Origin: a virus
Taxonomy: Duplodnaviria > Heunggongvirae > Uroviricota > Caudoviricetes
Length of the DNA stretch: 32,272 nt
Reading direction: 5' to 3' (one strand)
IMG/VR virus record: IMGVR_UViG_2778261667_000010
Coordinates: 1-32,272 of that record
The first letter of the stretch is position 1. Every line of letters starts with the position of its first letter. The translations under genes and the position numbers were made by a program. Under the pieces are notes generated by a model. The model saw only the letters and a program-made list of their open reading frames with translations. It was not told the DNA's origin and did not search any database. Positions 1 through 29,493 of this stretch are shown one piece after another.

Positions 1-1362
1 ATGTTTAAACCGGAACTCCTTTCCCCGGCGGGAACGCTGAAAAATATGCGTTACGCTTTCGCTTATGGCGCAGATGCTGTTTATGCGGGGCAACCGCGTT
101 ACTCCCTGCGTGTGCGCAACAACGAATTTAACCACGAAAATCTCCAGCTCGGCATCAATGAAGCCCACGCGCTGGGGAAAAAGTTTTATGTCGTGGTCAA
201 CATTGCGCCACACAATGCCAAGCTAAAAACCTTTATCCGTGATCTGAAACCGGTGGTGGAAATGGGGCCGGACGCACTGATTATGTCCGATCCGGGGCTG
301 ATTATGCTGGTGCGTGAACACTTCCCTGAAATGCCGATCCACCTTTCCGTGCAGGCCAACGCCGTAAACTGGGCGACGGTGAAATTCTGGCAGCAAATGG
401 GGTTGACCCGCGTGATCCTCTCCCGCGAGCTGTCGCTGGAAGAGATTGAAGAGATCCGCAATCAGGTTCCGGATATGGAGCTTGAAATCTTCGTTCACGG
501 CGCGCTGTGCATGGCCTACTCCGGCCGCTGCCTGCTCTCTGGCTACATCAACAAACGCGATCCAAACCAGGGCACCTGCACCAACGCCTGCCGTTGGGAG
601 TACAACGTGCAGGAAGGGAAAGAAGATGACGTTGGCAACATCGTACACAAATACGAGCCGATTCCGGTGCAAAACGTCGAGCCGACGCTGGGTATCGGTG
701 CGCCAACCGACAAAGTGTTTATGATCGAAGAAGCCCAGCGCCCGGGCGAGTATATGACCGCGTTTGAAGATGAGCACGGCACTTACATCATGAACTCGAA
801 AGATCTGCGCGCCATCGCCCACGTTGAACGCCTGACCAAAATGGGCGTGCATTCGCTGAAAATCGAAGGCCGCACTAAATCTTTCTACTATTGTGCACGT
901 ACCGCGCAGGTTTATCGTAAAGCTATCGATGACGCCGCTGCGGGCAAACCGTTCGACACCAGCCTGCTGGAAACACTGGAAGGCCTGGCGCATCGTGGTT
1001 ACACCGAAGGTTTCCTGCGTCGTCATACTCACGACGATTACCAGAACTACGAATACGGTTATTCCGTTTCTGACCGCCAGCAGTTTGTTGGAGAGTTTAC
1101 CGGTGAGCGTAAAGGCTCTCTGGCAGCCGTAGCGGTGAAAAATAAATTCTCCGTTGGCGACAGCCTGGAACTGATGACGCCACAGGGCAATATCAACTTT
1201 ACCCTTGAGCACATGGAAAACGCCAAAGGTGAAGCGATGCCGGTCGCGCCTGGCGATGGCTATACCGTGTGGCTCCCGGTTCCGCAGGATCTCGAGCTGA
1301 ATTACGCACTGCTGATGCGTAATTTCTCCGGGGAAACCACGCGTAACCCGCACGGTAAGTGA
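1..1362 (+). CDS. yegQ: U32-family peptidase-like protein YegQ (also called TrhP, tRNA hydroxylation factor); host gene
   Basis: ATG at 1, uninterrupted 453-codon ORF; translation recognised from memory as E. coli YegQ/TrhP; lies upstream of cyaR as in E. coli. Confidence 0.85.
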   Translation: MFKPELLSPAGTLKNMRYAFAYGADAVYAGQPRYSLRVRNNEFNHENLQLGINEAHALGKKFYVVVNIAPHNAKLKTFIRDLKPVVEMGPDALIMSDPGLIMLVREHFPEMPIHLSVQANAVNWATVKFWQQMGLTRVILSRELSLEEIEEIRNQVPDMELEIFVHGALCMAYSGRCLLSGYINKRDPNQGTCTNACRWEYNVQEGKEDDVGNIVHKYEPIPVQNVEPTLGIGAPTDKVFMIEEAQRPGEYMTAFEDEHGTYIMNSKDLRAIAHVERLTKMGVHSLKIEGRTKSFYYCARTAQVYRKAIDDAAAGKPFDTSLLETLEGLAHRGYTEGFLRRHTHDDYQNYEYGYSVSDRQQFVGEFTGERKGSLAAVAVKNKFSVGDSLELMTPQGNINFTLEHMENAKGEAMPVAPGDGYTVWLPVPQDLELNYALLMRNFSGETTRNPHGK

Positions 1363-1396
1363 TTCATTTCGATTATTTTTCCCGGATAGAAAATTC

Positions 1397-1439
1397 TTAG
1401 AAACCGATCACATACGGCTGCATTTATTAAGGTTATTAT
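1397..1439 (+). promoter_or_regulatory. putative cyaR promoter: CRP-like site TTAGA-N6-TCACA (1397-1412) and -10-like TATTAT (1434-1439)
   Basis: Half-site spacing fits a CRP site centred about 42 bp upstream of the CyaR 5' end; cyaR is known to be CRP-activated. Assigned by eye only. Confidence 0.4.
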
Positions 1440-1446
1440 CTGTTTC

Positions 1447-1533
1447 GCTGAAAAACATAACCCATAAAATGCTAGCTGTACCAGGAACCACCTCCTTAGC
1501 CTGTGTAATCTCCCTTACACGGGCTTATTTTTT
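1447..1533 (+). ncRNA. cyaR: CyaR (RyeE) Hfq-binding small RNA
   Basis: Sequence GCTGAAAAACATAACCCATAAAATGCTAGCTGTACCAGGAACCACCTCCTTAGCC... recognised as CyaR; ends in a 10-bp terminator stem (1497-1522) plus U-tract TTATTTTTT. Confidence 0.8.
1507..1533. other. P2 att core (27 bp, AATCTCCCTTACACGGGCTTATTTTTT), prophage-host junction overlapping the CyaR terminator
   Basis: Exact reverse complement of the recalled P2 core AAAAAATAAGCCCGTGTAAGGGAGATT; phage genes begin directly to the right. Confidence 0.7.
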
Positions 1534-1596
1534 ACGCGTAACACAATGAAATAAAAGGATTTATTTCTGGTCACGTCCACACATTGACCACATCGA

Positions 1597-1621
1597 CAAA
1601 AAAGCCCCTCGACTGAGGGGC
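1597..1621 (-). terminator. intrinsic terminator downstream of ogr
   Basis: Stem GCCCCTC/GAGGGGC (1604-1621) with loop GACT; on the minus strand it is followed by a T-run (A-run 1597-1603 on plus). Confidence 0.6.
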
Positions 1622-1634
1622 TTCCTGTTTGTAA

Positions 1635-3591: not shown

Positions 3592-6039
3592 TTAACCGTC
3601 ATGCATCATGCTGGCACGGGCGCGCGCACGTTTGTCCCGCTCGTATTTTTCGAGCGCATCCTGTAACTGGCGGTCGAGCTGTGTCCCCGGCGCAGTACCA
3701 CCCGTCAGGCTGATGTGATATTCGTTTTTACTCTGGTCTACATAAGAGCGGCCAGCCGGTGCCGTGACCGGCTGATAAGCCTGATAACCTGCATAAGAGC
3801 TGGTCGCCGGAATATAACCACCGCTGCCATACGTGGCGGCTTGAGTTCTGGCGGCGGTCTGGTCAAGTGTGTCTGACTCTTTGTTGATGACACCGAGTTT
3901 TTCCAGTACCCAGTCAATACCACTGCGCAGTTTGTTGAACGCATTAAGCGGCAGCATCAGCGCGTCAGCCAGTGCCTGCCCGAACATGACGCCCGTGTCA
4001 CGGCAACGGTTCAGGGTGTCCTGGGTGGCTTTGACCGGGGCAATCAGGTTTTTAAACCACTGCCACGCGGCCTGTAACTTTTCACCCAGCCAGTCAAACA
4101 CCGGCTTAAGTGGCGTGAACAGTTCCCCCACCGGCGCAAATGCCGCTTTCAGCCCTTCCACCACACCGCCAAAAAATGCGCTGACAGGCTCCCAGTATTT
4201 ACGGATAAGTAACGCCCCGGCGACAATGGCGGCCACCACGGCCACTACCGGCCAGCTAATCGCCCCGATGGCCGTCATAACGGCACTGCCAACCGTCGTG
4301 AAGATTGCCCCCATTGCGCCTGCTGCTGCGATAATGGCATTGATGCCAGTGATAACCGGCCAGGCTACAAGACCAATTGCACCGATGATGCCAATCAGCG
4401 CCAGCGCGCCACCGGCAATGATGCCAATGGTTGACGCCAGTGATTTGTTTTTCTGTATCCAGCCGTCGAGTTTTAACACATACTTTGTGGCCGTCTGTGT
4501 GAGCTTACGCAGTGCGCCTTCCTGCTGGTCAAACAGGTCTGTCCCTACCGCCTCATAAGCGGACTGAAACTCCTTAAAGTCACCGCCGAGGTTATCCTGC
4601 ATGATATTTACCAGCTCGGCGGTCTTCCCGTCTGAGGCTTTAAACGCAGCAGTCAGTTTGTCCAGCTTTCCGGTTGAGGCGGCAGTCATCAGCACGGCGG
4701 CGGCTGAGCTGGCCTCCTCCCCGAAAATAGTTTTCATGTATTCAGCCTGCTGGGCAGTACCGAGCCGGTTTTTCTCAAAACTGGCCTGCATTTCTTTCAG
4801 AATGGTAAATATTGGTCGGGTATTCCCCTTACTGTCTGAGGTTTTCACGCCAAGCTCTTTGAGTGCATCCCATGCTTTTCCCGTTGGTGCCTGCAGGCGA
4901 CTTAACACGGCACGGCTTCCCGTCCCCGCCATTGAGCCTGTGATTTTTGCATCATGCAGCGCCCCGACCATTGCGGCGGTTTCTTCAATGCTGACACCGG
5001 CATTTTTTGCCACAGGTGCGGCATAGGTCAGCGCATCGCTCATGCCGTCAAAATCGGCGGCGGTTTTGTTCATCGTCATGGAGAGAACATCCCCGATATG
5101 AGCGACCTTATCGTTTGAAAGCTGAAAGGCGGATTTCATCCCCATCAGCAGGGCGGCGTTTTCTTCCATCGTGCGGCGGTTCGCCAGCGCCATGTTCAGC
5201 GTGACCGGCGTTGCCGCCTGAATGGCATCAACATCCCCACCCGCTTTCGCGATGATTATCTGTGCACCGGCCGCATCATCCGCCGAGGCGGCGGTATTGT
5301 CGCCGAGCTGGCGCGCCTGTTTGCGTAGTGCGGTCATTTCGGCGGAGTCTTTTGCCACTCCGAGCACGGCCTGCAATTCTGAGTTTTTCTGCGCAAACTC
5401 ATAACCGGGCATCAGCAGCTTAACACCGGCCATCGTTCCCGCAGCAGCAATCCCCACACCGGCAGCGCCCACTGAGGCCATATTTCCGGCCAGCTCCTTT
5501 CCTGCCTGATAACGCTGTTTCACTGCGTTAAGTTTTGCCTGTTGCGCACTGACACGCGCCAGCGCGTCACGCTGCCGGTTAAGCTGTGCGGTGGTTTCAC
5601 TGATACGGTTTTTCAGCCCCTGCTCATCATGTGCAAGATTGCGGGTATTAATTCCCACAGCGGCCAGTTCCCGCTGCTGGCGTTTAACGGAATCCGTCAG
5701 GCGGTTATATTTCGCCTGTAAGTCCTCCGCCGCACGCTTTGCGGATTCCAGCACTTTCGCCTGAGCACGGGTCGGACGTTCAGTGTTTTTAAACTGTGTG
5801 GCAAGGGCTTCGGCCTCCTGCCGTGCCTTTTCAAGTGCATGACCAGTCACGGCGAGCTGTGCGCTGGTCTTGCGAAATCCCTCAATACGGGATGCCTGAC
5901 CGTTCAGCTCGCGCAGTGATTTTTGTGTTTCCCGGATATCCCCCGACAGCGACTTGCTCGCTGTGCGGATGGATTTAAACGGGCGGGATGCCTGGTCAAC
6001 AGCCCTGAGCAATACCTGTAATTTTACATTGTTACTCAT
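3592..6039 (-). CDS. T: tail tape measure protein gpT (815 aa)
   Basis: 815 aa, Ala/Gly-rich with hydrophobic central segment; position between E/E' and U. Confidence 0.9.
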   Translation of the reverse strand: MSNNVKLQVLLRAVDQASRPFKSIRTASKSLSGDIRETQKSLRELNGQASRIEGFRKTSAQLAVTGHALEKARQEAEALATQFKNTERPTRAQAKVLESAKRAAEDLQAKYNRLTDSVKRQQRELAAVGINTRNLAHDEQGLKNRISETTAQLNRQRDALARVSAQQAKLNAVKQRYQAGKELAGNMASVGAAGVGIAAAGTMAGVKLLMPGYEFAQKNSELQAVLGVAKDSAEMTALRKQARQLGDNTAASADDAAGAQIIIAKAGGDVDAIQAATPVTLNMALANRRTMEENAALLMGMKSAFQLSNDKVAHIGDVLSMTMNKTAADFDGMSDALTYAAPVAKNAGVSIEETAAMVGALHDAKITGSMAGTGSRAVLSRLQAPTGKAWDALKELGVKTSDSKGNTRPIFTILKEMQASFEKNRLGTAQQAEYMKTIFGEEASSAAAVLMTAASTGKLDKLTAAFKASDGKTAELVNIMQDNLGGDFKEFQSAYEAVGTDLFDQQEGALRKLTQTATKYVLKLDGWIQKNKSLASTIGIIAGGALALIGIIGAIGLVAWPVITGINAIIAAAGAMGAIFTTVGSAVMTAIGAISWPVVAVVAAIVAGALLIRKYWEPVSAFFGGVVEGLKAAFAPVGELFTPLKPVFDWLGEKLQAAWQWFKNLIAPVKATQDTLNRCRDTGVMFGQALADALMLPLNAFNKLRSGIDWVLEKLGVINKESDTLDQTAARTQAATYGSGGYIPATSSYAGYQAYQPVTAPAGRSYVDQSKNEYHISLTGGTAPGTQLDRQLQDALEKYERDKRARARASMMHDG

Positions 6040-6459
6040 TCGTGTTTCCGCTTCGCCGGAGCGCCTTTTCGCGCCATGTGATGAGTTCGGTCAGGCTCAT
6101 GGGATACAGTTCTGATGGCGGCCAGTGAAATATCACTGCCACATCCGCCATCAGGTCATCGACCGAGAGATTTTTCGGGAACGTCACTGCACCGAGTTCG
6201 GCGACAAAAAACCGACCACCTTACCGGCCAGCGCCACAAGGTCAGGCAGTTCCAGCGCGGCAACTTCCTGCTCGGTCAGCATCGGTGCCGTCATGCGCGG
6301 CAGCACCTTAATCAGTGCATCGACTTCGGAGTTCGCGACCGCAGCCAGACTGACACCGCGCAGCGTCCCGGCATTGGGCTTCATCAGCGTGACCTGTTCG
6401 ATGACCTGCTCACCACGCTTGACCGGATTGTCCAGGGTAATCACATTTTCTTTGTTCAT
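6032..6459 (-). CDS. E+E': gpE+E' chaperone made by programmed -1 ribosomal frameshift
   Basis: Slippery T TTT TTG at 6205-6211 (minus strand). Hand translation of the -1 frame from 6205 gives an open extension VAELGAVTFPKNLSVDDLMADVAVIFHWPP...NTNE ending at TAA 6034-6032, overlapping the T start. Confidence 0.8.
6184..6459 (-). CDS. E: tail assembly chaperone gpE (91 aa)
   Basis: 91-aa ORF upstream of T; ends ...GFLSPNSVQ and carries slippery heptamer TTTTTTG near its 3' end. Confidence 0.9.
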   Translation of the reverse strand: MNKENVITLDNPVKRGEQVIEQVTLMKPNAGTLRGVSLAAVANSEVDALIKVLPRMTAPMLTEQEVAALELPDLVALAGKVVGFLSPNSVQ

Positions 6460-6487
6460 GGTTTTCTCACTTCTGAATCAGGGTTAA

Positions 6488-6508
6488 CCGGTCAGCCTGG
6501 CTGACCGG
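6488..6508 (-). other. perfect 9-bp stem-loop (CCGGTCAGC-CTG-GCTGACCGG) in FII-E intergenic region
   Basis: Inverted repeat read directly; no U-tract follows on the transcribed strand, so more likely an mRNA structure than a full terminator. Confidence 0.4.
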
Positions 6509-6515
6509 ATGAAAA

Positions 6516-7034
6516 TCACAGGCCGATATTGCGGCGGTGTTGCTCCAGACGGTCGACACCGTTCACCTTCTCAATCATGTTGATGGTGTCGATTTCGACC
6601 AGCTCCTTACCGTCCATCGTCAGCCGGAAATAGGTGCAGACCACGGAGATTTTCGACTCGGTGTCTTCTCCCTGTTTACCCTCGCCGGTGTCGATTTCTT
6701 TCTGACGTCCACGCATGACCACTTCGACGGCCACCGTTTCGCCGGTATCGTCGCGCTGGTAAGAGCCTGCAAAACGAATCGGCACGGCATCCACACCGGT
6801 TGCGGCGTAAAGCTCCCAGATAACCGAATCCGGGAAGCCCCCGAGCGACCACTCCATTGACAGCGCATCGTCATCAAGGCCGAGGTCTACCGGTGCGCTG
6901 CCGTTCATCCCCGCACCGCGATAGTTTTCGAGCTTACGGGTCAGTTTTGGCAGCGTGACGGACTTTGCAACGCCCTGATAGCTGTAGCCGTTCAGAAAGA
7001 CGTTCATTAACTTGAGTTTGCGCGGCATTGCCAT
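6516..7034 (-). CDS. FII: tail tube protein gpFII (172 aa)
   Basis: Length and synteny match P2 FII; ATG at 7032-7034. Confidence 0.9.
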   Translation of the reverse strand: MAMPRKLKLMNVFLNGYSYQGVAKSVTLPKLTRKLENYRGAGMNGSAPVDLGLDDDALSMEWSLGGFPDSVIWELYAATGVDAVPIRFAGSYQRDDTGETVAVEVVMRGRQKEIDTGEGKQGEDTESKISVVCTYFRLTMDGKELVEIDTINMIEKVNGVDRLEQHRRNIGL

Positions 7035-7046
7035 CGGTCAGGCTCC

Positions 7047-8237
7047 TTAATTGCTGTTAACCGAGGTAACCAGACTTGCCAGGTATCTGGAAGTAATACG
7101 CTGGCGCAGGGTCAGGTTTTCGAGAGGAGGCACCGGGGTATAGTCGTAGTCGATATACAGTTTTCCGGCCTTGAGGGTTTCCGCATCATTGGCTTCTTCA
7201 CTGAACCAGCATGTGCCATCCACGATATAACCGTTGTTTTTCAGTTCGCGGAATTTGGCATTAATGCCATCAATGATGTCACGAATCAGCGTTGCGGTAA
7301 TTGGCTTATCAATAGCCCACATGTGCGCCTCGGCCATCGTGTCGGCCAGTACCTGCGCGGTGCGGGTGTAGCTTTCAAAGAGGAACAGCGGGTCATCCGA
7401 GCAGGTACGGTTACCCCAGAAGCGGAAGCCGTCGCGGCGAATCAGCGTAGTGATGCCTGACTCGTTAAGCAGGTCAGCATCAGTGCCGGACTTCTGCAAA
7501 TCCCAGAATACAGAGGCGCTGATGCCGGTAACACCATTTACCCCGACGTTGGACAGCGTTTTATGCCAGCCCTGCTCCTGGTCGATTTTGGCACGCAGCC
7601 CCAGCGCACGGGCGGTGGCATACGCGGTGGCAGTGGTACTGGTAACCGTATCCCATGCGAGGAAATCCGGCCAGATGACCATCAGCTCACGCTGGCTGAA
7701 ATTCTGACGGTAGGCTTTTGCCTCGGAAATGGTTTTACAGCCCCATGCGCTAATATACCCGAATGCATTCAGTTCCTGGCATACCGATGCCAGTGCGACG
7801 GCAACCTCTTTGGTGTCCAGTCCCGGTACGCCGAGAATGCGTGGTTTAACGCCGGTAACCGACTCAGCCCCCATCAGGGCTTTCAGTCCGGTGTACTGAC
7901 CGTTTTCGTCGGTGGTGCCGATGATATTGGAAACGGTCTGCGCGAGTTTCGTTTCTTCGTCGTCGCCGGTGCCGTCTTCCACGCGCACAACAACAGTCAC
8001 TGGTTTTGACTGGTCGGCGATGGCCTGCAACGATGCCGCCAGCGTGCCTTTTTTACCGGCCTTTGCAATTGCGCTCTGCACATTGGTAATCAGCACCGGT
8101 TTATTGAGGGGGAAGGTTTCCGCATCCGCATCGCTGGCCGTGCAGACCATGCCGACAATGGCGGTGGATACGGTGGAAATGACGCGGGTGCCGTCGTTAA
8201 TCTCCAGCACCTGCACACCGTGATGATAATCACTCAT
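7047..8237 (-). CDS. FI: contractile tail sheath protein gpFI (396 aa)
   Basis: Length and synteny match P2 FI; ATG at 8235-8237. Confidence 0.9.
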   Translation of the reverse strand: MSDYHHGVQVLEINDGTRVISTVSTAIVGMVCTASDADAETFPLNKPVLITNVQSAIAKAGKKGTLAASLQAIADQSKPVTVVVRVEDGTGDDEETKLAQTVSNIIGTTDENGQYTGLKALMGAESVTGVKPRILGVPGLDTKEVAVALASVCQELNAFGYISAWGCKTISEAKAYRQNFSQRELMVIWPDFLAWDTVTSTTATAYATARALGLRAKIDQEQGWHKTLSNVGVNGVTGISASVFWDLQKSGTDADLLNESGITTLIRRDGFRFWGNRTCSDDPLFLFESYTRTAQVLADTMAEAHMWAIDKPITATLIRDIIDGINAKFRELKNNGYIVDGTCWFSEEANDAETLKAGKLYIDYDYTPVPPLENLTLRQRITSRYLASLVTSVNSN

Positions 8238-8366: not shown

Positions 8367-8897
8367 TTATTGTGGTAGTTCCGGCCATTCAGGATTTGCA
8401 GGATCCACACGACTGACCAGAACGCTGTAGCGTTCCCATGCCTCCAGTCGGCTGCGCTCCTCATCTGTTGCCATATTCAGCCTGACCGCACGCTCCAGCG
8501 GCTGAATCAATGCCTCAGCTTCTGCAAGCAAGGTTGACTTTCGGACTTCGGCTTGCTGCTGCCGTTCTGCATCCGTATATACACGTTTAATTACAGTGTC
8601 ATCTTTGAACATCCAGTTACCTGAAATATCAGCGCGACGGTTGGCGGTTATATTCGGTAACTCAACAACACTCAAGCCATCAGGGTTGAGCATTGACACA
8701 TCTTTCTCAATGCAACGAATAATACCGTTCTCGTCGTAGGCCATTTTTAAAGTGTCTGGCTGGAAATTCTTTTGTTCCTCATACCAGTTTTTACCATCAT
8801 CTGACCATAGCCAGACAATATTAAATCGTTTGGTTAATTCATATTGTTCAATAGTTTTTGGATTCCCTGCCTTAATATTTTTTAAATGCATCATCAT
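8367..8897 (-). CDS. G: tail fibre assembly chaperone gpG (about 175 aa)
   Basis: Conserved C-terminus ...[41 protein letters not shown]; three tandem ATG codons at 8889-8897, so the exact start is uncertain; TAATG overlap with the H stop. Confidence 0.85.
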
Positions 8898-11419
8898 TAA
8901 ATACTCCCTGCGTTATACCATGTGCCATTAATACAATACTGAACAGGTCTTGCCTGCGCGATATCAATTAATTCATCAGTATTACTATTGACAACACCAG
9001 TAAGAACATGCCCTGACCTGTCATGCCAGCCAGTACCATTCCACGTTGGAAGGGATGACAAACCACCTAAGCGAATACCTGTAATAAAACGTGAATTACA
9101 TTCCGCCTTGGTATAAGCGCCAATATCACCTGGCGATGGTTTATGAGCTGTCGTATAAATTTGCGCCCATCCAGACCATTGAGCATCATCTGTATCCCGC
9201 CTTGAACGGATATATGCTGGCGCGTAACCTCCACTGGTGCCGCTCCAGCCGATAAGTAATTCACCTTCTCCAACTGCGGACACCCCCGTAAGATGAAGCA
9301 CATTGCCATAGGCGTAAGGGTAGCCATTGTTATATGCCTCATACATCTGAATACCAGGCGTCCCCTTTGCACTCCCGCTTAATGCTGTGACGCGATTCCG
9401 GGATACCAGCGTATTAATATTTATATCGCCGGTGCCATCAAATTTGACACTATTAATATTTCGTGCCGTTTTCAGCTTTGTAGCTGTAGCAGCATTGCCG
9501 GACAGTTCGCCTGAAAGACCGGCGCTGAAGGTTTGTTTCGCCGCCCATGTCTGAGCTTCGTCGATAATTGGCACACGTCTTGTCGTGATCGTGCGGCTTC
9601 CCGGATTTCCTGAAATACGCACCATAAAAAAGCGGTAGTTCGCTTTACTTACAGTGCTGCGCCACACATGCATTGAGCGCCCCGTACCGGAATCATCACT
9701 CGGACCGACTGAGATGTTTATCAGGTTGCCATCAATGACGCCCCAGTCCATACCGTCGGGAATATTGGCCATGTTATCAAGCCGAACGGTTATCAGACTA
9801 CCCGGCACAAAGTCGTAGGTCTGCCAGTCCAGACTGGATAATTTTGCCACTGCGCCACCGATGCCCAGATTCAGGGGAAGTGAATACGAGGTGTAGACTT
9901 CCCGCCATTCGCTCCACGAACTGCCGGTATAGACGCGCTCAAACGTGCGACCTTTCGTTGTCGTTCCTGTCCCTGTAGTGGTATAGCGTTGCAATACAGC
10001 AACGTAATCAAAACGTCTGATAACCTCTAACACCCCTAGTAGTGTTGCACCAGATGAATCCAGCAATGGACCATTGGTTGCTTTACCCGTCACACTGTAA
10101 ATACCAGGGTCGGTTAGATCATTCAAATCACCGTCATAAAAGCTGCTTGCAGTCTGGCTGCCGATTCTCAGCCACGGTTCCCACTGTGGGTTTGATGCAT
10201 CCCAGTTTGCAGCAAGGCAGCGGACATACATGTTCCCACGGCGAGTGGTATAACGCTGGGTATAACTGAATCCACCACCTTTCATAACTTCAAGCACTCC
10301 CTGCGCGTAACTACCAGCTTCGGGATAGTGCAACGCAAGAGAAGCTAACGTACTGGAACTGTTTCTCCATGTACCCAGGTTATCCTCCCCGGCCAGAAAA
10401 TCGAGATCCATACTGTCATCCAGCGTTCTGGCCGTCCCCTGAACGTTACGCCATACGCTCCACGGACCATCTTTGCCGTTCCATTTAGCCGTCAGGTGGC
10501 GAATATAAGTATTTCCATTGCGAACAGTGTAACGCTGTGTTCCGTTAAAATTTCCTGCTGCAAATACTTCCAGGACACCAACGGCATTCTCTTCCGGGAA
10601 GTGTTTGGCTATCTGTGCATTAGTCGAAGTGCCTTTTGACCATGTACCCAGATAAGCTTTAACGGGACCAAATGTATTCAGATCAGCATCAACCGGCATT
10701 TCGCCGTTGTTTTTCATAAACGTCAGGCTGGTAACGCCAACATTGTCCAGAAAAGCGTCCTTATCTGGAATATCGCCACCGTTCTGGTCTTTCTGCAGAC
10801 GTTTCTCAGCATTGTCATAGGCTGCTTTTACTGCCTTTGGCGTTGCAGCCTGCTTTTCACTGGTGCTGTTTGTTGCACTGCTTAACTGAGTAAAACCTTT
10901 CTCTGTCAGCGTGGCGTCAGGATGGCGGCGGGACTGCTCATGCTCTGCGATTTTGTCATCGACGTAATCCTGCGTCGCCATCACCGTGCTGGCATCAATA
11001 CTCAGCTCAACGGACGCCACGTTGCTGAGAATAATCACCATGCAGCAGGTCTGCGCACGTCCGGAGCCTTCAGCCAGTTCTGGCTTATAGCTTTCTGCCA
11101 TGTTGGATACCGCAATCAGTGTTCCGGCATCGTCATACAAACCAAGCTCACGCATCCAGAAGCCGCCCACTTCGGGCGGTACAACCAGTTCAGCCACGAT
11201 ATAGTTTTTATTCTTGTTATCCACGCTGACTTTATTCAGAGCGTGACGCCAGACCTCATGCACCAGTTTCGTCTGACCGGCATCCGGCACCGGCAATTTG
11301 CCATTACCGTCACCCACGGCCATTGCAGACAGGTTTACTTTTTTCCCGCCGGGGACAGTGGCGGCAGCCAGCTTTGCGGCTCCGGCAGTAGTGATAACGG
11401 TTTTAAATTTCGTGCTCAT
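8897..11419 (-). CDS. H: tail fibre protein gpH, elongated mosaic variant (840 aa)
   Basis: N-terminal 200 aa P2 H-like ([25 protein letters not shown]...); central three-fold repeat and divergent C-terminal receptor-binding region; ATG at 11417-11419. Confidence 0.9.
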
Positions 11420-20279: not shown

Positions 20280-22052
20280 ATGACCATCACCACAGACACC
20301 ACTCTTTTACACGACCCGCGTCGTCAGGCGGCGCTGCTGTACTGGCAGGGGTTTTCCGTGCCGCAGATTGCCGCCATGTTGCAGATGAAACGCCCGACGG
20401 TGCAGAGCTGGAAACAGCGCGACGGCTGGGACAGCGTTGCCCCCATCAGCCGTGTCGAAATGAGCCTGGAAGCGCGGCTGACCCAGCTCATCATCAAACC
20501 GCAGAAAACCGGCGGTGACTTCAAGGAAATTGACCTGCTGGGACGCCAGATTGAACGACTGGCACGGGTAAACCGCTACAGCCAGACCGGCAACGAGGCA
20601 GACCTTAATCCGAACGTCGCTAACCGCAACAAAGGCGGGCGTCGCAAACCGAAAAAGAATTTTTTCAGTGACGAAGCCATCGAAAAGCTGGAGCAGATTT
20701 TCTTTGAGCAGTCTTTCGACTATCAGTTGCACTGGTATCGCGCCGGGCTTGAGCACCGCATCCGCGATATCCTGAAATCCCGCCAGATTGGCGCGACGTT
20801 TTATTTTTCCCGCGAGGCACTGCTGCGCGCCCTGAAAACCGGTCATAACCAGATTTTTCTGTCGGCCAGTAAAACGCAGGCGTATGTGTTCCGCGAATAC
20901 ATCATCGCCTTTGCCCGTCTGGTGGACGTTGACCTTACCGGTGACCCGATTGTCCTGGGCAATAACGGCGCAAAACTGATTTTTCTCGGCACCAACTCCA
21001 ACACCGCGCAGAGCCATAACGGCGACCTGTACGTCGATGAGATTTTCTGGATCCCGAATTTTCAGGTACTGCGTAAGGTGGCATCAGGTATGGCCTCACA
21101 GAGTCACCTGCGCTCGACCTATTTCTCCACCCCGTCCACGCTGGCGCACGACGCCTACCCGTTCTGGTCAGGTGAACTGTTCAACCGGGGACGTGCCAGC
21201 GCCGCCGAACGTGTGGAAATCGACGTCAGTCATAACGCCCTTGCCAGCGGGCTTCTCTGTGCGGACGGCCAGTGGCGGCAGATTGTCACCATTGAGGACG
21301 CCCTGAAAGGCGGCTGCACACTGTTCGACATTGAGCAGCTCAAACGTGAAAACAGCGCCGACGATTTTAAAAACCTGTTCATGTGTGAATTTGTTGACGA
21401 CAAGGCGTCGGTGTTCCCGTTCGAGGAGCTGCAACGCTGCATGGTCGACACGCTGGAAGAATGGGAAGACTATGCGCCGTTTGCCGCCAATCCGTTCGGC
21501 TCACGTCCGGTATGGATTGGTTACGACCCGTCACACCGTGGCGACAGCGCCGGATGCGTGGTGCTGGCACCGCCGGTGGTGGCCGGTGGCAAATTCAGAA
21601 TACTTGAGCGTCACCAGTGGAAAGGCATGGACTTTGCCACCCAGGCGGAATCCATCCGCAAACTCACCGAAAAATACAACGTCGAATACATCGGTATTGA
21701 TGCCACCGGCCTTGGTGTCGGCGTGTTCCAGCTCGTGCGCTCGTTCTATCCCGCCGCGCGCGATATCCGCTACACGCCGGAAATGAAAACCGCAATGGTG
21801 CTCAAGGCAAAAGACGTTATCCGCCGTGGCTGTCTGGAATATGACGTCAGCGCCACCGACATCACCAGCTCGTTTATGGCTATCCGCAAGACCATGACCA
21901 GCAGCGGACGCAGCGCCACCTATGAGGCCAGCCGCAGCGAGGAAGCCAGCCACGCCGACCTCGCCTGGGCGACCATGCACGCTCTGTTAAATGAGCCACT
22001 CACCGCCGGTATCAGCACCCCGCTGACATCCACCATTCTGGAGTTTTACTGA
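20280..22052 (+). CDS. P: terminase large (ATPase) subunit gpP (590 aa)
   Basis: ATG at 20280 preceded by GAGG; MTITTDTTLLHD...; the track ORF begins at an upstream TTG. Confidence 0.9.
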   Translation: MTITTDTTLLHDPRRQAALLYWQGFSVPQIAAMLQMKRPTVQSWKQRDGWDSVAPISRVEMSLEARLTQLIIKPQKTGGDFKEIDLLGRQIERLARVNRYSQTGNEADLNPNVANRNKGGRRKPKKNFFSDEAIEKLEQIFFEQSFDYQLHWYRAGLEHRIRDILKSRQIGATFYFSREALLRALKTGHNQIFLSASKTQAYVFREYIIAFARLVDVDLTGDPIVLGNNGAKLIFLGTNSNTAQSHNGDLYVDEIFWIPNFQVLRKVASGMASQSHLRSTYFSTPSTLAHDAYPFWSGELFNRGRASAAERVEIDVSHNALASGLLCADGQWRQIVTIEDALKGGCTLFDIEQLKRENSADDFKNLFMCEFVDDKASVFPFEELQRCMVDTLEEWEDYAPFAANPFGSRPVWIGYDPSHRGDSAGCVVLAPPVVAGGKFRILERHQWKGMDFATQAESIRKLTEKYNVEYIGIDATGLGVGVFQLVRSFYPAARDIRYTPEMKTAMVLKAKDVIRRGCLEYDVSATDITSSFMAIRKTMTSSGRSATYEASRSEEASHADLAWATMHALLNEPLTAGISTPLTSTILEFY

Positions 22053-23086
22053 TGAGCAAGAAAAAAGGGAAAACACCGCAACCTGCGGCAAAAACAATGA
22101 CCGCCAGCGCCCCGAAAATGGAGGCATTCACCTTTGGCGAGCCGGTGCCGGTACTCGACCGCCGTGACATTCTGGATTACGTCGAATGCATCAGTAACGG
22201 CAGATGGTATGAGCCGCCGGTCAGCTTTACCGGTCTGGCAAAAAGTCTGCGTGCTGCCGTGCATCACAGCTCACCGATTTACGTCAAACGTAATATTCTG
22301 GCTTCAACGTTTATCCCGCACCCGTGGCTTTCCCAGCAGGATTTCAGCCGCTTTGTGCTGGATTTTCTGGTGTTCGGTAATGCGTTTCTGGAAAAGCGTT
22401 ACAGCACCACCGGTAAGGTCATCAGACTGGAAACCTCACCGGCAAAATATACCCGCCGTGGCGTGGAGGAGGATGTTTACTGGTGGGTGCCGTCCTTCAA
22501 CGAACCGACAGCCTTCACGCCCGGTTCCGTGTTTCACCTGCTGGAGCCGGATATTAATCAGGAGCTGTACGGCCTGCCGGAATATCTCAGCGCCCTTAAC
22601 TCTGCCTGGCTGAATGAGTCGGCCACGCTGTTCCGCCGCAAGTATTACGAAAACGGCGCACATGCCGGATACATCATGTACGTTACCGATGCCGTGCAGG
22701 ATCGCAACGATATCGAAATGCTTCGCGAAAACATGGTGAAGTCGAAAGGCCGCAACAACTTTAAAAATCTGTTTCTCTATGCCCCACAAGGGAAAGCCGA
22801 CGGCATTAAAATTATCCCGCTCAGTGAAGTGGCGACGAAGGACGATTTTTTTAATATCAAAAAAGCCAGTGCCGCAGACCTGCTGGACGCCCACCGCATC
22901 CCCTTTCAGTTGATGGGCGGCAAGCCGGAGAACGTCGGGTCGCTGGGTGATATTGAGAAAGTGGCAAAGGTCTTTGTCCGCAATGAGCTTATCCCGTTAC
23001 AGGACAGGATCCGAGAGATAAACGGCTGGCTCGGTCAGGAGGTCATCCGCTTTAAAAACTACTCACTGGACACTGACAACGACTGA
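22052..23086 (+). CDS. Q: portal protein gpQ (344 aa)
   Basis: ATGA overlap with P stop; length and synteny match P2 Q. Confidence 0.9.
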   Translation: MSKKKGKTPQPAAKTMTASAPKMEAFTFGEPVPVLDRRDILDYVECISNGRWYEPPVSFTGLAKSLRAAVHHSSPIYVKRNILASTFIPHPWLSQQDFSRFVLDFLVFGNAFLEKRYSTTGKVIRLETSPAKYTRRGVEEDVYWWVPSFNEPTAFTPGSVFHLLEPDINQELYGLPEYLSALNSAWLNESATLFRRKYYENGAHAGYIMYVTDAVQDRNDIEMLRENMVKSKGRNNFKNLFLYAPQGKADGIKIIPLSEVATKDDFFNIKKASAADLLDAHRIPFQLMGGKPENVGSLGDIEKVAKVFVRNELIPLQDRIREINGWLGQEVIRFKNYSLDTDND

Positions 23087-23090
23087 ACAT

Positions 23091-23113
23091 CGCCGCCTGC
23101 GGGCGGCTTTTTT
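23091..23113 (+). terminator. intrinsic terminator after Q
   Basis: Stem GCCGCC/GGCGGC with loop TGCG, followed by TTTTTT (23108-23113). Confidence 0.75.
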
Positions 23114-23255
23114 ACATCCCGTCATCACGCCCTCACACGCTCACCACCGCACAAAACACCCCTTAGACACACCAACGCCCCGACGCACAATCTAAACGCC
23201 ATCACGACGCGCTCAGACGCTGAAAAAATAAAATCAGCACCACCGCCAGCGCGCA

Positions 23256-23274
23256 GTGCTTTCCCCGCCTCGCC
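23256..23274. other. cos: cos cohesive-end sequence (19 nt)
   Basis: GTGCTTTCCCCGCCTCGCC is the reverse complement of the recalled P2/P4 cohesive end GGCGAGGCGGGGAAAGCAC. Confidence 0.75.
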
Positions 23275-23368
23275 CGCCCGCTTCATGGGGCGGTTTTGAT
23301 GCAACCTCGTATTAAAGGGGACACCATAGCCCATCAAACCTCAGACTTCGCCCCTAGCTAACGTTTAT

Positions 23369-23398
23369 GAATGCAATGTAATGCAACTTAATGCAAGT
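23369..23398 (+). repeat. three 10-bp-phased direct repeats of (T/G)AATGCAA upstream of the cargo gene
   Basis: ATGCAA at 23371-23376, 23381-23386 and 23391-23396, exactly 10 bp apart, 60-90 bp upstream of the ATG at 23458. Confidence 0.7.
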
Positions 23399-23457
23399 TA
23401 TGGTAATGATAATTCTGCGTTAACAATTAAACTAATGTACCTGTAAGAGGATAAAAA

Positions 23458-25941
23458 ATGTCTGGTTTTTTCCTTGATTTAACCAAGCTTTCGCCCAGTG
23501 TAAATAGCGACACAGCGATTCCACCGCGAGATATATTTACAGCTCTACCGAGCAAAGACACCAAATTTCAATACCCTCGAGATGTGCAATCAGAGGTCTG
23601 GGAAAAATGGTATGAAGCAAGGAGAAGCCCAACCAATGTAATAAAAATGAATACCGGAAGCGGTAAAACTTCAGTTGGGTTAATCATTCTTAAAAGCTGT
23701 ATAAATGAAGGAGAAGGTCCCGCTGTATATGTTGTTCCTGACAACTATCTAGTTGAGCAAGTGGTTTTGGAGGCTAATCAACTTGGTATACCTGTAACTC
23801 AAGATGAGAGGTCCCCCAAATTTATTGCAGGTAAAGAAATTTTAGTTACAAATATATTCAAAGTGGTTAATGGACGTTCTGCATTTGGCGTTGGAGATGA
23901 TGGACAAAAAATACCAATAGGTTCTATAATAATTGACGATGCTCACGCTTGCCTTTCTTCAATTGAAGAACAATTCTCCATTAGCATTCAAAAAAATAAC
24001 CCTGCCTATGATAAATTATTCAGAATTTTTGAAAATTCACTAATGACACAAGCTGGTGCAAAAACACTAGAGATAAAATCCGGCGATAGAAATGCTTATG
24101 TGAGAGTTCCATTTTGGAAATGGCAAGAAAGCATAAATGATATAATGACAATCTTGTTAGAAAATAAAGACCATGATGACTTGAGTTTCAAATGGCCATT
24201 AATAAAAGACAATCTAATATTATCGAAATGCGTTGTAAGTGCTTCCAAAATAGAGATATCACCTCATTGCATACCAATCCAAATGATCCCAAGCCTATCA
24301 AACGCAAGAAGAAAAATATTCATGACAGCTACTCTTGTCGATGAATCCATTCTAGCGAGCCACTTCGGAATAACGGATGAATCACTCTCTAATCCGATAA
24401 CACCAAAAACAATTGGTGATATTGGTGATAGAATGATACTAATGCCTCAGGTTATAAACCCTAGTCTTTCTGATGTAGATATCAAAGCTATGTGCAAGGA
24501 GATATCCTCCAAACATAATGTTGTTGTAATTGTACCATCCGATTACAGAACTAGATTTTGGCAAGATGTTGCAGACAGAATATTAGATAAAAATACAATT
24601 TATCAAGGTGTACAAGAATTAAGGACACAACATGTTGGCTTAGTAGTCCTAGTTAATAGATATGATGGTATTGATTTACCAAATACCGCATGTCGTCTAT
24701 TAGTAATAGATGGACTTCCTGACGTTCGTAGACTAATAGATAAAGTCTCACAAAGCTTATTGCTTGGAAGCGAAAAAACCAAAGATGAAATTATCCAGAA
24801 AATTGAACAAGGAATGGGGCGAGGAGTGAGATCAAGCGACGACTTCTGCGGAGTGATCTTACTTGGCAAAGCATTAAATGGCGCTGTTTTCCTTGGCTCC
24901 TCCTTAGAAAGGTTTTCTCCAGCAACGAAAGCACAAATTCAACTTTCACAGCAATTGGTATCGATACTGCCGGATACAACTATTGATTCAATCAAAGGTG
25001 CTCTTGATTATTGTCTGTTACGCAATTCTGACTGGGTCTCAAAAAGCAAAGGTATATTGACTGGCTTAACATTGGAAAATAAGCAGATTGACCAGCATAC
25101 TATAAACAAAAGATTGGCATATGACTTCGCATCACGAAATATGTTTCAACAAGCCGCTTTAACTCTAAAAAATGATAGTAGTACAGCTGACAAAGTTTAT
25201 AAGGGTTATCTAAAAGAACATGCTGCGGAATATGTAAACTTATATGACAAATCTGAAGCTCAGATATTGCTTCAGTCTGCATCAAACGATAACTATCGGG
25301 TATTAAAACCACTAATCGGCGTAACATATAATAGACTTAATGGTGCGGCACTTGAACAGGCCAGGGAATGTAGCTCCTATCTCAGAAGTAATTTTGAATC
25401 GGCGAATCAAGTCGTTGTGCATACTAATTCAATAATAGAAAACCTTATTTTCTCCGAGGGCACATCGAATCCCTTCGAAGATGCTATCGAAAAAGTTGCA
25501 TATTTGATCGGTTTTCGTAGCCAACGGCCAGAAAATGATACAGGTAAAGGACCTGACAATTTATGGGCAATGGGAGAAAACAATTATCTAGTAATTGAAT
25601 GCAAAAATGGAGCAACCGCAGAAAGAATAAGTAAGCATGACTGCAATCAGTTAAATGGGTCGGGTGCATGGTTCAGAAACATGTATGATCAAACTGCTAC
25701 CGCCACACCTATAATGATACATCACTCTAACATGCCTGAATATGCCGCAACACTAAACGAAGGGTCTCGAATAATGACCATAAATGATCTTGAACGTTTT
25801 AAAGCATCTATCCTCAGTTTTATCACGGCCATTTGTACAAGTGATAAACGACACGATGAGATATTTATAAGAGAACAATTGATCACATGTAAATTACGTG
25901 CATCAGACATAGTTGAAACCTATACGCGAAACCCTCGTTAA
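23458..25941 (+). CDS. cargo protein (827 aa): SF2 helicase-like ATPase with C-terminal PD-(D/E)xK-like nuclease motif; candidate anti-phage defence protein
   Basis: ATG 23458 with RBS AGAGGA 7 nt upstream; visibly AT-rich codon usage unlike flanking phage genes. Motif I NTGSGKT (23653-23670), motif II DDAH (23935-23946), motif V-like YDGIDLP, motif VI QGMGRGVR (24808-24831); C-terminal GPD (D700, 25555-25557) ... IECK (E714/K716, 25597-25605). Confidence 0.85.
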   Translation: MSGFFLDLTKLSPSVNSDTAIPPRDIFTALPSKDTKFQYPRDVQSEVWEKWYEARRSPTNVIKMNTGSGKTSVGLIILKSCINEGEGPAVYVVPDNYLVEQVVLEANQLGIPVTQDERSPKFIAGKEILVTNIFKVVNGRSAFGVGDDGQKIPIGSIIIDDAHACLSSIEEQFSISIQKNNPAYDKLFRIFENSLMTQAGAKTLEIKSGDRNAYVRVPFWKWQESINDIMTILLENKDHDDLSFKWPLIKDNLILSKCVVSASKIEISPHCIPIQMIPSLSNARRKIFMTATLVDESILASHFGITDESLSNPITPKTIGDIGDRMILMPQVINPSLSDVDIKAMCKEISSKHNVVVIVPSDYRTRFWQDVADRILDKNTIYQGVQELRTQHVGLVVLVNRYDGIDLPNTACRLLVIDGLPDVRRLIDKVSQSLLLGSEKTKDEIIQKIEQGMGRGVRSSDDFCGVILLGKALNGAVFLGSSLERFSPATKAQIQLSQQLVSILPDTTIDSIKGALDYCLLRNSDWVSKSKGILTGLTLENKQIDQHTINKRLAYDFASRNMFQQAALTLKNDSSTADKVYKGYLKEHAAEYVNLYDKSEAQILLQSASNDNYRVLKPLIGVTYNRLNGAALEQARECSSYLRSNFESANQVVVHTNSIIENLIFSEGTSNPFEDAIEKVAYLIGFRSQRPENDTGKGPDNLWAMGENNYLVIECKNGATAERISKHDCNQLNGSGAWFRNMYDQTATATPIMIHHSNMPEYAATLNEGSRIMTINDLERFKASILSFITAICTSDKRHDEIFIREQLITCKLRASDIVETYTRNPR

Positions 25942-25945
25942 ACAG

Positions 25946-25980
25946 TAAAAGACCACCTCCTAAGGAGGTGGTCCTTGTAT
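25946..25980 (+). terminator. stem-loop terminator after the cargo gene, possibly bidirectional
   Basis: Perfect 10-bp stem GACCACCTCC/GGAGGTGGTC with loop TAA (25951-25973), 9 nt after the stop; short T-runs on both strands. Confidence 0.6.
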
Positions 25981-26181
25981 AATAAAAAGAACCAGTTTTT
26001 ATTGTTAATAATACAATTCTCGAATTTCAACATAGACTTATTGTACCACCAGTAAAATCATCAATATTAATATATAGAAAAAAAAGAAATGTCGATTATT
26101 TGTACGTAGCGTAATCATATTAACATATACAGATAAACAGCAACCTTACCATTATGCAACCAATCTAAAACATTATGTTTA

Positions 26182-28461
26182 TTACTCTGAATAACCAGAA
26201 AACCCACTCCACTCATCTACACTAGGATATGAAAATTGCTTTTCATTGTAATTGACGATCGCACCGCGTACTAACGCCTCAAGCTCCCATCGCTGCGGCC
26301 TGATACCGTTTTGAGCAAGGTCAACACGGATACGGGTGATTTGCAATCGTTCAGACCGGGTCAGTCTGGCCGATGGTGCAATTTCATGTGGTTTTAACGG
26401 GCTTCCGTTTCTTTGCTGACGACTTGGCGTTCTCCGACCGTGTTTTAATGCACCCCTGAGCGCCCTCACTACCTCCGGGTCATTCCATTCGATAACACCG
26501 TCATCAACCAGATTTAGCACTGCTGCGGCGTGCTCAGAAGGTGTGGGAGCCGGTAACGAAGTATCACCACCGGTGAGCTTTCCACAGTTATTGACAGGAC
26601 TCCGAGGCGCGGCGATGCCGCTTTTTAAAGTCAAAGGCTCAACGACCGGAACTTTCGGCACAATGCGCCAGTCCGTCGTTCTGGTGATATGAATATGACG
26701 CGCGCCGAGATGCGGCGCGTAAATGCCGACCACTCTCTCGACTTCTTCCTCGTACTCGTTAACTTCATCCGACGGACTACGGGCAACCCTGACAGTCTGA
26801 CAATCGCGCGGAACATTTGCCCCACCCTGCGCGCTGATATACAACGCAAAATCACCACTGTCTGCGGCAGCGCGTGCAGCCTCGACGCGTTCGTCAAACT
26901 CATCAGCAATGCTGACGCCGCGAGGCAATTTGCGTAGTTCACGGTAAGCCCCCATTGTCGGCAGGCCAACCGTTTTAAATTGCGGAATGCGCCACGTTGA
27001 CGCCCATGCGGTAACAGCCGCGGCAGTGTCTTTCAGCGGCCTGCCGGTATCGTTATCGAGCTGACCATCCAGTGCATAGCCGTCGATATTTTTCGAAATG
27101 TATTTCGCGATATATCCCGCAGCACCGCCCCGGTTAAGGTGTTTTGCCTGAAAACGGTTTCGCGCGGCTCCTCTTTCGTCGCCATCCTCTTTGAGCGCAT
27201 AGCGACGCATGATTTCGATAATCTGGTTACGCTGGCGTGGATTACAAAAAAGCATCATATGCCAGTGCGGCGTTCCGTCGTGGTGTGGCTCGACGACTCG
27301 CAAACCGTAGACCTGTAAATCATTATCCTTGAATGCCGTGCGCATCAGGCTCCAGATACGGCAGAGATAACGCTGCGCATCCTTTGGATTAAATGCCTCA
27401 TCATTCCAGCCGTGATTAAGCTGGACGGTTTTATTTTCGCCTTTTCCAACCTGACGTGTCGGGTGATACTTTGACGGCGCGGTAAGCGTGATAAACATCC
27501 CCACATCACCCTCTGAGGCGGCGTAACGCTCAATACCGGCAATGGTGTTCATCAGCTCCATCCGGCGAATTTCAGGATTAGAAATACTGCCCATCACCTT
27601 ACTGATAAGGTCGATGCGCTCGCCGGTTTCCCTGTTTTCAAGGTCACACGATTTAAGAAATTCCAGATTTGCCTGGCGGCGCGCACGCACATCACGAATG
27701 GCATGTTTACTGGCATAAGGAGAACAGTCTTTATTCACCTCCCCGACAGCAATCAGTAACGCCTCATGCCAGCGCATACGCTGGCCTTTAAGCTGATGAG
27801 TCCACCACTCATCGTTAAACAGACGGGCAATGGCAGAATATGCCTGCCTCGTGGTCATCTGTCCTTTACGGTATTTTTTCCAGTAGAGAGGGGAAATATT
27901 GAAAGCACGTGCAGCGCCAGCAACATGACCATAGAGGTGAGCCTGCGCCTCATCCGTAAACAGCGATTCTTTCTCGCCATGCGCATCCACCCAGGCATCG
28001 CAGAGTTCCTCATACATCATGAAAAGCTGTGATGAGATACGGGCGGCAAACTTTTTCAGCTCCTTGTCATTCATCCCCGGCAGGCGCGCATACTGGTCGC
28101 GCTCTGCCAGAAACAGCAACGACGCGTCGGTGTTCATTTCATGGCGCTGATTCACGCGCTCAATGCGCGGCCATAAACGACGCTGAAAAGTGGATGTGAG
28201 GAAATAAAACCCGTGCACCGGGCTTTTATTGCGCCGGATGTAGTCATAGCGTGAAGTAAACAGCGAGCGCAAAAAGTAAGGCAGGCGGTTAATCGTGGAT
28301 AAAACACCTTGCACCTGACGCATCTCGTCACGTGTAAGGGGTCTTTCGTGCCCGACAGCCTCGCGTGGCGCGTTCCATGCATAAGCACCGGTAAACGCCT
28401 TACCGGTGCCTGCGGCAAATGCTGACGGAGGGACAAAACGCCCGGAGGCTTTAACGGCCAT
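26182..28461 (-). CDS. A: replication initiation protein gpA (rolling-circle nickase, about 759 aa)
   Basis: Near-identical to recalled P2 gpA (MAVKASGRFVPPSAF...); ATG at 28459-28461. The track start at 28503 is a TTG extension. Confidence 0.9.
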   Translation of the reverse strand: MAVKASGRFVPPSAFAAGTGKAFTGAYAWNAPREAVGHERPLTRDEMRQVQGVLSTINRLPYFLRSLFTSRYDYIRRNKSPVHGFYFLTSTFQRRLWPRIERVNQRHEMNTDASLLFLAERDQYARLPGMNDKELKKFAARISSQLFMMYEELCDAWVDAHGEKESLFTDEAQAHLYGHVAGAARAFNISPLYWKKYRKGQMTTRQAYSAIARLFNDEWWTHQLKGQRMRWHEALLIAVGEVNKDCSPYASKHAIRDVRARRQANLEFLKSCDLENRETGERIDLISKVMGSISNPEIRRMELMNTIAGIERYAASEGDVGMFITLTAPSKYHPTRQVGKGENKTVQLNHGWNDEAFNPKDAQRYLCRIWSLMRTAFKDNDLQVYGLRVVEPHHDGTPHWHMMLFCNPRQRNQIIEIMRRYALKEDGDERGAARNRFQAKHLNRGGAAGYIAKYISKNIDGYALDGQLDNDTGRPLKDTAAAVTAWASTWRIPQFKTVGLPTMGAYRELRKLPRGVSIADEFDERVEAARAAADSGDFALYISAQGGANVPRDCQTVRVARSPSDEVNEYEEEVERVVGIYAPHLGARHIHITRTTDWRIVPKVPVVEPLTLKSGIAAPRSPVNNCGKLTGGDTSLPAPTPSEHAAAVLNLVDDGVIEWNDPEVVRALRGALKHGRRTPSRQQRNGSPLKPHEIAPSARLTRSERLQITRIRVDLAQNGIRPQRWELEALVRGAIVNYNEKQFSYPSVDEWSGFSGYSE

Positions 28462-28726
28462 ATGAGCCAAAAGCCTCAGAACAACGCTTGCTGAGTTGCT
28501 CAACCTGCGCGTTTAAATCAGCAAAAGACTTTGCGCTTCCGGTCAGAATATCGTGATGCATCAGGCCGGAAACGAGCTGGCTTAATTTCGGGTAATAACC
28601 AACCACCGCCAGCCATTCCTGACCGACATTTTTACCGCTTTCCGCTCTCTTTTTCTCGTGGAGAATAAACTGAAAGCTGTCACTGGTAACGACATAACGT
28701 TCGCCAATTTCAATACGAATACTCAT
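28451..28726 (-). CDS. small early-operon protein (91 aa), orf83-like
   Basis: ATG at 28724-28726, ATGA overlap with upstream ORF; position immediately upstream of A. Confidence 0.7.
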   Translation of the reverse strand: MSIRIEIGERYVVTSDSFQFILHEKKRAESGKNVGQEWLAVVGYYPKLSQLVSGLMHHDILTGSAKSFADLNAQVEQLSKRCSEAFGSYGR

Positions 28727-28947
28727 GCCATTCTCCGGTAATGCTTGTTTTTTGCTTCAAAGACTGACTGACAGGAAACACAACGCGTGGCTGACGGGTA
28801 AGCCGCACGACGGGCAGCAGGTATTGGCGCGTCACACTCTTCGCAAACCAGCGCAGAAGCACCGCAATGTTTTACCCTTGCCGCGTTAATCTGGCGCTCC
28901 AGTAATTCAGCTTGTTGTTCCTGAATAAAATCTACGTTGTCCGGCAT
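28723..28947 (-). CDS. DksA/TraR-family C4 zinc-finger protein (74 aa)
   Basis: CEECDAPIPAARRAAYPSATRCVSC fits the DksA/TraR signature C-[DES]-x-C-x3-I-x3-R-x4-P-x4-C-x2-C; translationally coupled overlaps at both ends. Confidence 0.8.
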   Translation of the reverse strand: MPDNVDFIQEQQAELLERQINAARVKHCGASALVCEECDAPIPAARRAAYPSATRCVSCQSVFEAKNKHYRRMA

Positions 28948-29479: not shown

Positions 29480-29493
29480 CTCCAACTTTCCTG

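Follow-up and report, generated by a model that had tools for sequence, protein, structure and literature searches.

Phages and islands are found integrated in the 3′ ends of tRNA, tmRNA and sRNA genes, among them 186 at tRNA-Ile, Fels-2 and SopEphi at ssrA, and elements at ryeB/SdsR in Salmonella. In such 3′-end integrators, the att core overlaps the 3′ stem and 3′ end of the RNA gene, which is made whole again by the phage copy (PMC3448106, PMC3603311). For the sRNA gene cyaR (ryeE), Table 2 of Archer et al. 2011 gives 'cyaR RNA' as the insertion site of Wphi2 (P2) in E. coli W, of ogr-D′ in K-12 and of P2*B in B (PMC3032704), and Bobay et al. 2013, citing Wassarman 2001, described ryeE in E. 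coli as a previously known phage target (PMC3603311). P2 integration at the 3′ end of cyaR and the ogr-D′ remnant of K-12 are already documented; for this reason the site and the remnant carry little weight as a discovery, and the locus described here is one more instance, in Escherichia marmotae. The cyaR case differs from the tRNA-like targets in that the sequence entered is the terminator of an Hfq-dependent sRNA and in that the core is short, its 27 bp taking in only part of the hairpin.

We analyzed a window of 32,272 nucleotides, the whole stretch of IMG/VR record IMGVR_UViG_2778261667_000010 from position 1 to position 32,272. We consider it very likely that the window holds a Peduovirus phage that was integrated by its Int at attB, the 3′ end of cyaR, in E. 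marmotae, the equivalent of the P2 site locI, that CyaR was left unchanged, and that the phage is most likely functional.

The left flank is host DNA. Positions 1–1362 (+ strand) are an open reading frame for yegQ/trhP, a host gene of the peptidase U32 family that is annotated thus in its E. coli matches, and cyaR starts 85 nt past the yegQ stop codon, which is its conserved position. The initial annotation placed cyaR at 1447, and this placement was borne out by a full-model match to the Rfam family RF00112 together with the expected terminator fold: CyaR (RyeE) occupies 1447–1533 (+ strand), 87 nt including its intrinsic terminator, and position 1447 is the G of GCUGAAAAAC. The RF00112 covariance model matched 1445–1530 (+ strand) with 100.7 bits (gathering score 47, E = 3e-19), in an alignment that spans model positions 1–85 of 85 and is not truncated; this was the sole Rfam match in the whole window. 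The C-rich pairing loop of CyaR, GGAACCACCUCC, lies at 1484–1495; of the 80 species-representative yegQ loci listed, a set from which most Escherichia representatives are absent, 75 have it at the equivalent position. The RNA from 1447 to 1533 folds with −19.8 kcal/mol (z = −3.0), and its terminator consists of an 11-bp stem (5′ arm at 1498–1508, 3′ arm at 1515–1525) with a 6-nt loop at 1509–1514. UAUUUUUU comes after the 3′ arm of this hairpin (1498–1525), with the U-tract at 1526–1533. Upstream of the gene, inspection by eye gave a candidate CRP element, TTAGA-N6-TCACA, centered near −42.5 of cyaR, and a candidate −10 element, TATTAT, at 1434–1439; a sigma-70 promoter scan of the region upstream of cyaR returned no site.

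Homology to phage begins inside this terminator. Positions 1507–1533 are the attL copy of the 27-bp P2 att core, AATCTCCCTTACACGGGCTTATTTTTT, identical at 27 of 27 positions to the core of the annotated P2 attP (AF063097, 24356–24382). This is the only occurrence of the core in the window, where 0 chance matches are expected even if 3 mismatches are allowed. Similarity to Peduovirus genomes in megablast begins at position 1507, the first base of the core, in agreement with the initial description of CyaR as followed immediately by phage DNA. The core opens with the final 2 nt of the 5′ arm and then takes in the loop, the entire 3′ arm and the U-tract of the terminator. It had been described as coinciding with the terminator hairpin and U-tract, which is correct for the loop, the 3′ arm and the U-tract but not for most of the 5′ arm, in which 9 of 11 nt are host-only and lie outside the core.

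Beyond the core, the P2 annotation has a one-to-one counterpart for the P arm, the P′ arm, the Cox boxes and the ogr terminator, and this att architecture is kept in nine other species. The P side is identical to P2 at 127 of 134 positions. Within it, the IHF binding region (1532–1565, mapped from the P2 annotation) retains the TGAAATAAAAGGATTTATTTC motif and carries 6 substitutions adjoining the core, and the Int arm-type sites (1569–1596), two direct repeats GTCCACA and GACCACA, are identical to the P2 'Int P arm' feature and agree with the published tgTGGaCa consensus (PMC3448106). The rho-independent terminator that P2 annotation assigns to the ogr transcript and the F operon lies at 1601–1624 on the − strand, convergent with cyaR, and a terminator scan located its hairpin at 1602–1623. 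Its orientation is thus the one first proposed, but its distance is 68 nt past the core, or 62 nt with the A-tract, rather than 65 bp. The gene for the late-gene activator Ogr follows at 1635–1853 (− strand; 72 aa, 100% amino acid identity to P2 Ogr), position 1634 being the base that precedes its stop codon.

The window ends at position 32272 with the stop codon of int, and attR therefore lies outside it. An exact-protein look-up with Int led to contig PTSF01000001.1 of assembly GCA_002965845.1 (locus L002), the first 11,014 bases of which equal window positions 21259–32272 with 0 mismatches. The second core copy that had been anticipated beyond the int end is present in this contig as an exact match at 11094–11120, equivalent to virtual window positions 32352–32378 and 80 bp past int, and host yegS comes directly after it. 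The reading of attR thus comes from a public contig in which only the right third of the window is represented, and the left flank was matched to conspecific genomes rather than to the L002 contig itself. The P′ arm, Cox boxes and core are identical to P2 at 121 of 121 positions; the Int P′ arm site, inside the 3′ end of int at 32238–32264, is identical to the P2 annotation.

We compared the occupied site with empty sites by joining window positions 1–1533 to the host flank of L002, which gave a rebuilt attB. An exact look-up with YegQ led to conspecific genomes, five of which (L091, L092, L094, L096 and L098) have cyaR and yegS adjoining and a left flank like that of the window; L093 is a sixth, more divergent empty cyaR-yegS locus, and L095 and L097 carry a P2-type prophage at the same site. 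On the left side, the rebuilt sequence matched the five empty sites without gaps and with 0–4 mismatches in 1,533 nt. On the right side it showed 2–9 mismatches in 2,800 nt against L091, L092, L094 and L096, with L098 out of register further downstream. Because the rebuilt attB matches the empty sites without gaps, the insertion was precise and only the core was duplicated. The occupied site is free of older phage debris, and the related Escherichia sp. E1V33, whose site the rebuilt attB also matches, has the same empty cyaR-yegS architecture.

The left-flank DNA also identifies the host. Its identity to 5,424 complete E. coli genomes never exceeds 94.8%, E. coli genomes being mutually 98.5–100% identical at the cyaR locus, and it is 99.7% identical to CP025979 of E. 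marmotae; CP025979.1, the source of the empty site L092, is the E. marmotae genome of PMC6650469. As judged from this flank, the host of the prophage is E. marmotae.

The prophage body, delimited by Peduovirus and P2 protein matches, runs from 1534 to 32272 and on for 79 bp to the attR core. Its core-to-core length of 30,845 bp compares with 29.2–34.8 kb for database Peduovirus records, and megablast against Peduovirus genomes gave 93–94% coverage at 95–96% identity. In a tblastn search with all 42 P2 proteins, all essential genes had full-length matches, most of them 92–100% identical. Present at full length are Q, P, O, N, M, L, X, Y, K, R, S, V, W, J and I, as well as H, G, FI, FII, E, T, U, D, ogr, int, C, cox, B and A; the same search found no match in the prophage for orf30, fun(Z), orf91, tin and old, which are non-essential cargo. 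The 19-nt P2 cohesive end, GGCGAGGCGGGGAAAGCAC, is present as an exact match in reverse orientation at 23256–23274 (− strand). The P2-type tyrosine integrase gene int occupies 31259–32272 (+ strand), and its 337-aa product has the catalytic motifs and equals P2 Int at 335 of 337 residues (99.4%). With every essential gene, cos and the sites for Int, IHF and Cox in place, the prophage looks intact at the sequence level, a heteroimmune relative of P2 with a different host-range module. The initial description of the prophage as apparently intact thus stands at the level of sequence, for essential genes, cos and att arms.

Divergence from P2 is concentrated in the immunity region and the tail fibre genes. 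The immunity region (30447–31143) is a mosaic in which C and the N-terminal half of Cox are divergent, flanked by int/att and orf78/B regions that are 98–100% P2-like. The C immunity repressor (30844–31143, + strand) is a divergent allele with an HTH_3 domain and 65% identity to P2 C. Cox, the excision directionality factor and Pc repressor (30447–30722, − strand), is 84% identical to its P2 counterpart (76 of 91 residues, 93% positives), with all 15 substitutions in residues 1–50. The tail fibre protein H (8897–11419, − strand) has 840 aa compared with 669 aa in P2, and only its N-terminal 207 residues resemble P2 H (83%); the tail fibre assembly protein G (8367–8897, − strand) is 75% identical to P2 G. 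The divergent H and G imply a receptor specificity that would be unlike that of P2. The same cox-C-int module is found in vB_EcoM-720R8, a record that is itself a cyaR prophage, and its recurrence there suggests that the module circulates. We considered vB_EcoM-720R8 as proof of viability and rejected it, the record, a 'partial genome', being a stretch of prophage that also includes yegR, yegS and gatR.

The region between cos/Q and gene A, where P2 has tin and old, contains a gene for an 827-aa DEAD/DEAH-type helicase (23458–25941, + strand) of the candidate defence family PDC-S28. The match to PADLOC model PDLC04986 is full length (E = 0, 1055 bits), and the protein has the helicase Pfam domains ResIII, DEAD and Helicase_C_2. 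Many E. coli genomes have P2-type prophages that carry this helicase gene as well; a literature search found no functional study of PDC-S28.

The closest described system is P2 itself at locI, its preferred attB in E. coli C. The two prophages have the 27-bp core in common, an identical P′ arm and Cox boxes, a near-identical P arm, Int proteins that are 99.4% identical and the same gene order from ogr to int. They differ in host (E. marmotae rather than E. coli), in length (30.8 kb versus 33.6 kb), in C (65%), Cox (84%) and the divergent H and G, and in cargo, with the PDC-S28 helicase in the window prophage instead of orf30, fun(Z), orf91, tin and old. Wphi2, P2*B and the K-12 remnant have the same insertion site and orientation as the window prophage, with ogr beside cyaR. 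The junctions of K-12 and of the window are identical across the core and into the start of the P arm, and the difference is that K-12 has a remnant and the window a complete prophage.

The P2 att system was reportedly established by Yu et al. in 1989 and by Yu and Haggard-Ljungquist in 1993. By this mechanism, Int and IHF would recombine the attP core with the simple core of attB through a crossover inside the shared 27 bp, and Cox would direct excision. At attL, the promoter, body and 5′ terminator arm of cyaR would be host DNA, the remaining terminator and the U-tract would come from the phage core, and the outcome would be an unchanged 87-nt CyaR; attR would be the second core beside yegS. 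The parts that excision would require are all present (int, cox, and both arms, P and P′, with their sites for Int, IHF and Cox), as are those for growth (replication, lysis, head and tail genes, and cos). Because both sets of parts are complete, the phage is most likely functional and heteroimmune to P2. We infer recombination activity, phage viability and normal CyaR expression from the DNA; because Cox diverges while the Cox boxes of the att site are those of P2, excision control by this particular Cox allele is assumed.

One alternative to a functional phage is a defective, domesticated prophage that is gene-complete but no longer excises or forms particles. In its favor are the 15 Cox substitutions within the first 50 residues, facing Cox boxes that are still those of P2, and a C protein that is just 65% identical to P2 C. 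P2 prophages are, moreover, naturally non-inducible, and we found no isolated virion with this cox-C-int module, the sole full match being a prophage region with host flank. We nevertheless regard a defective prophage as unlikely, since no frameshift or truncation was found in the essential genes, the cos site matches exactly, neither core is damaged, and Int retains its catalytic motifs and is nearly that of P2. The Cox substitutions, too, are mostly conservative, and the module that contains them recurs in another cyaR prophage.

With respect to the sRNA, we favor a neutral integration. The proposal that the sRNA 3′ end is regenerated from the shared core agrees with the finding that CyaR does not differ in sequence between occupied and empty sites: because both cores are identical for this prophage, the transcribed 87 nt are unchanged. 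The contrary view is that the 3′ part or flank supplied by the phage alters CyaR termination or Hfq binding. It could draw on the T-run after the hairpin, which has 6 T in attL and 7 T in a conspecific empty site because the base that follows is a phage A, a difference of 1 nt that lies just outside the core. It could also cite the convergent ogr/F terminator just 68 nt away, and the lineage of E. coli 4/1-1, in which lysogeny put U.G in place of a U-A pair in the stem of the terminator. These points are countered by the identity of the two cores here and by the empty sites of E. coli, in which the T-run itself already varies between 6 and 7 T. They are also countered by K-12, which has the same attL-type junction and expresses a functional CyaR; the functional literature on CyaR rests on this K-12 gene. 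An effect of the integration on CyaR is, in our judgment, very unlikely. Finally, that the 27-bp match is a coincidence, and the phage a remnant beside cyaR or inserted elsewhere, can be dismissed as next to impossible, because apart from the position of attR outside the window nothing speaks for it, and against it stand a 27/27 core match with 0 expected by chance, an exact direct repeat that brackets the phage, a base-accurate empty-site rebuild and a complete gene set.

Natural lysogens with unequal cores locate the crossover more closely. E. coli 4/1-1 (NZ_CP023844.1, locus L099), a cyaR lysogen, has cores at 5059–5085 and 38642–38668 that differ at core position 15, which is G in attL and A in attR. 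Empty sites with A, identical over 227 nt, were found in at least 25 complete genomes, including the siblings 4/4 and 2/0, and intact attP sequences have G at this position in 5 IMG/VR contigs and A in 0, with P2 also having G. The host therefore supplied the A and the phage the G. It follows from the unequal cores that the Int crossover lay at or left of core position 14, with position 15 on the P-arm side. This comparison shows that, from core position 15 on, at least the last 13 nt of CyaR (GGGCUUAUUUUUU) come from the phage in lysogens.

Several further observations concern variation in the core and its flanks. The E. marmotae empty site L094 (CP056165.1, ∼4520–4523) has a variant core, CTTACGCAGGC, which differs at positions 13 and 15; the same variant is found in Escherichia sp. 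E1V33 and E. albertii (loci L010 and L011). Thanks to G.U wobble, the host-only 5′ arm, AGCCUGUGUAA, pairs with either allele of the 3′ arm. Core position 13, G in the variant, may fall in the crossover region and could affect P2 integration. In four Kluyvera species (L034, L036, L043 and L052, ∼7505–7533), the exact 27-bp P2 core is part of the CyaR terminator sequence. There the 5′ arm is AGCCCGTGTAA in L034, L043 and L052, giving perfect Watson-Crick pairing with the core, and AGCCCGCGTAA in L036; one of the pairs that are perfect in Kluyvera is a U.G wobble in Escherichia.

The 'empty' attB of E. coli (L006 and L007, 4034–4085) has a decayed P arm, CTGGTCACCGTCTTCCATTGACCACATCGA, right after the core, followed by yegR. 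This decayed P arm and the phage Int arm sites (window 1561–1596) have the 15-mer CATTGACCACATCGA in common, and their local alignment scored 38, compared with a maximum of 24 in 2,000 shuffles. P-arm similarity was absent from the flanks of E. marmotae and E1V33, both of which also lack yegR. Together these features suggest that an ancient P2-like integration may have become fixed in E. coli. We also considered yegR as a phage-borne gene and found no support for this, as tblastn against a phage collection gave only two records, both with host flank (vB_EcoM-720R8 and 'Phage TP'). A broader reading is that the terminator is not a passive landing pad, that its core alleles are overwritten by phage, that host variants block P2 and the two co-evolve, and that the 'empty' attB of E. 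coli is a fossil attL; we put this forward tentatively, as a possibility that is rather unlikely.

Prophages and remnants at this site are frequent in E. coli. Of 5,426 complete E. coli genomes, 1,273 (about 23%) have the cyaR/P-arm junction and 758 have the int-P′-core segment; thus ∼14% carry an int-bearing P2-type prophage of cyaR specificity, and a further ∼9% carry remnants such as ogrK-D′ of K-12. The statement in the initial annotation that some E. coli strains retain only an ogr/D remnant is accurate, as the K-12-type locus has only ogrK and a D fragment, ending in a partial attR core. In one K-12-type locus (L008), this partial core, GAACTCTGCTACACGGGCTTATTTTTT, lies at 5136–5162, where internal D sequence runs straight into the final 18 nt of the attR core. 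This fusion indicates that the deletion behind the remnant had one end inside D and the other in the attR core. Among the 80 species-representative yegQ loci listed, 9 have the P-arm architecture right after cyaR, and only L059, L072 and L085 of these nine gave P2 protein matches; the remaining P-arm loci are probably remnants.

The sequence after cyaR in L009 and in five Enterobacter loci was considered as a mobile element and rejected, since it proved to be a conserved gene of the host, from the 2-thiouracil desulfurase family. In L009 (CP169086.1, labelled Enterobacter hormaechei B17-3; 6001–7506), the yegQ-cyaR region is 99.9% identical to that of E. coli NT1F31, yet downstream an Enterobacter-like 2-thiouracil desulfurase gene overlaps the cyaR terminator on the other strand. 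Either this record is mislabelled or the locus is chimeric or recombinant.

For the annotation of this locus, our findings mean that cyaR should not be recorded as disrupted and that the borders of the prophage are fixed to the base. The bracketing of the crossover by natural lysogens may be of use to students of sRNA terminators or of P2 Int specificity, and the P2 cargo hotspot proves to contain a candidate defence helicase.
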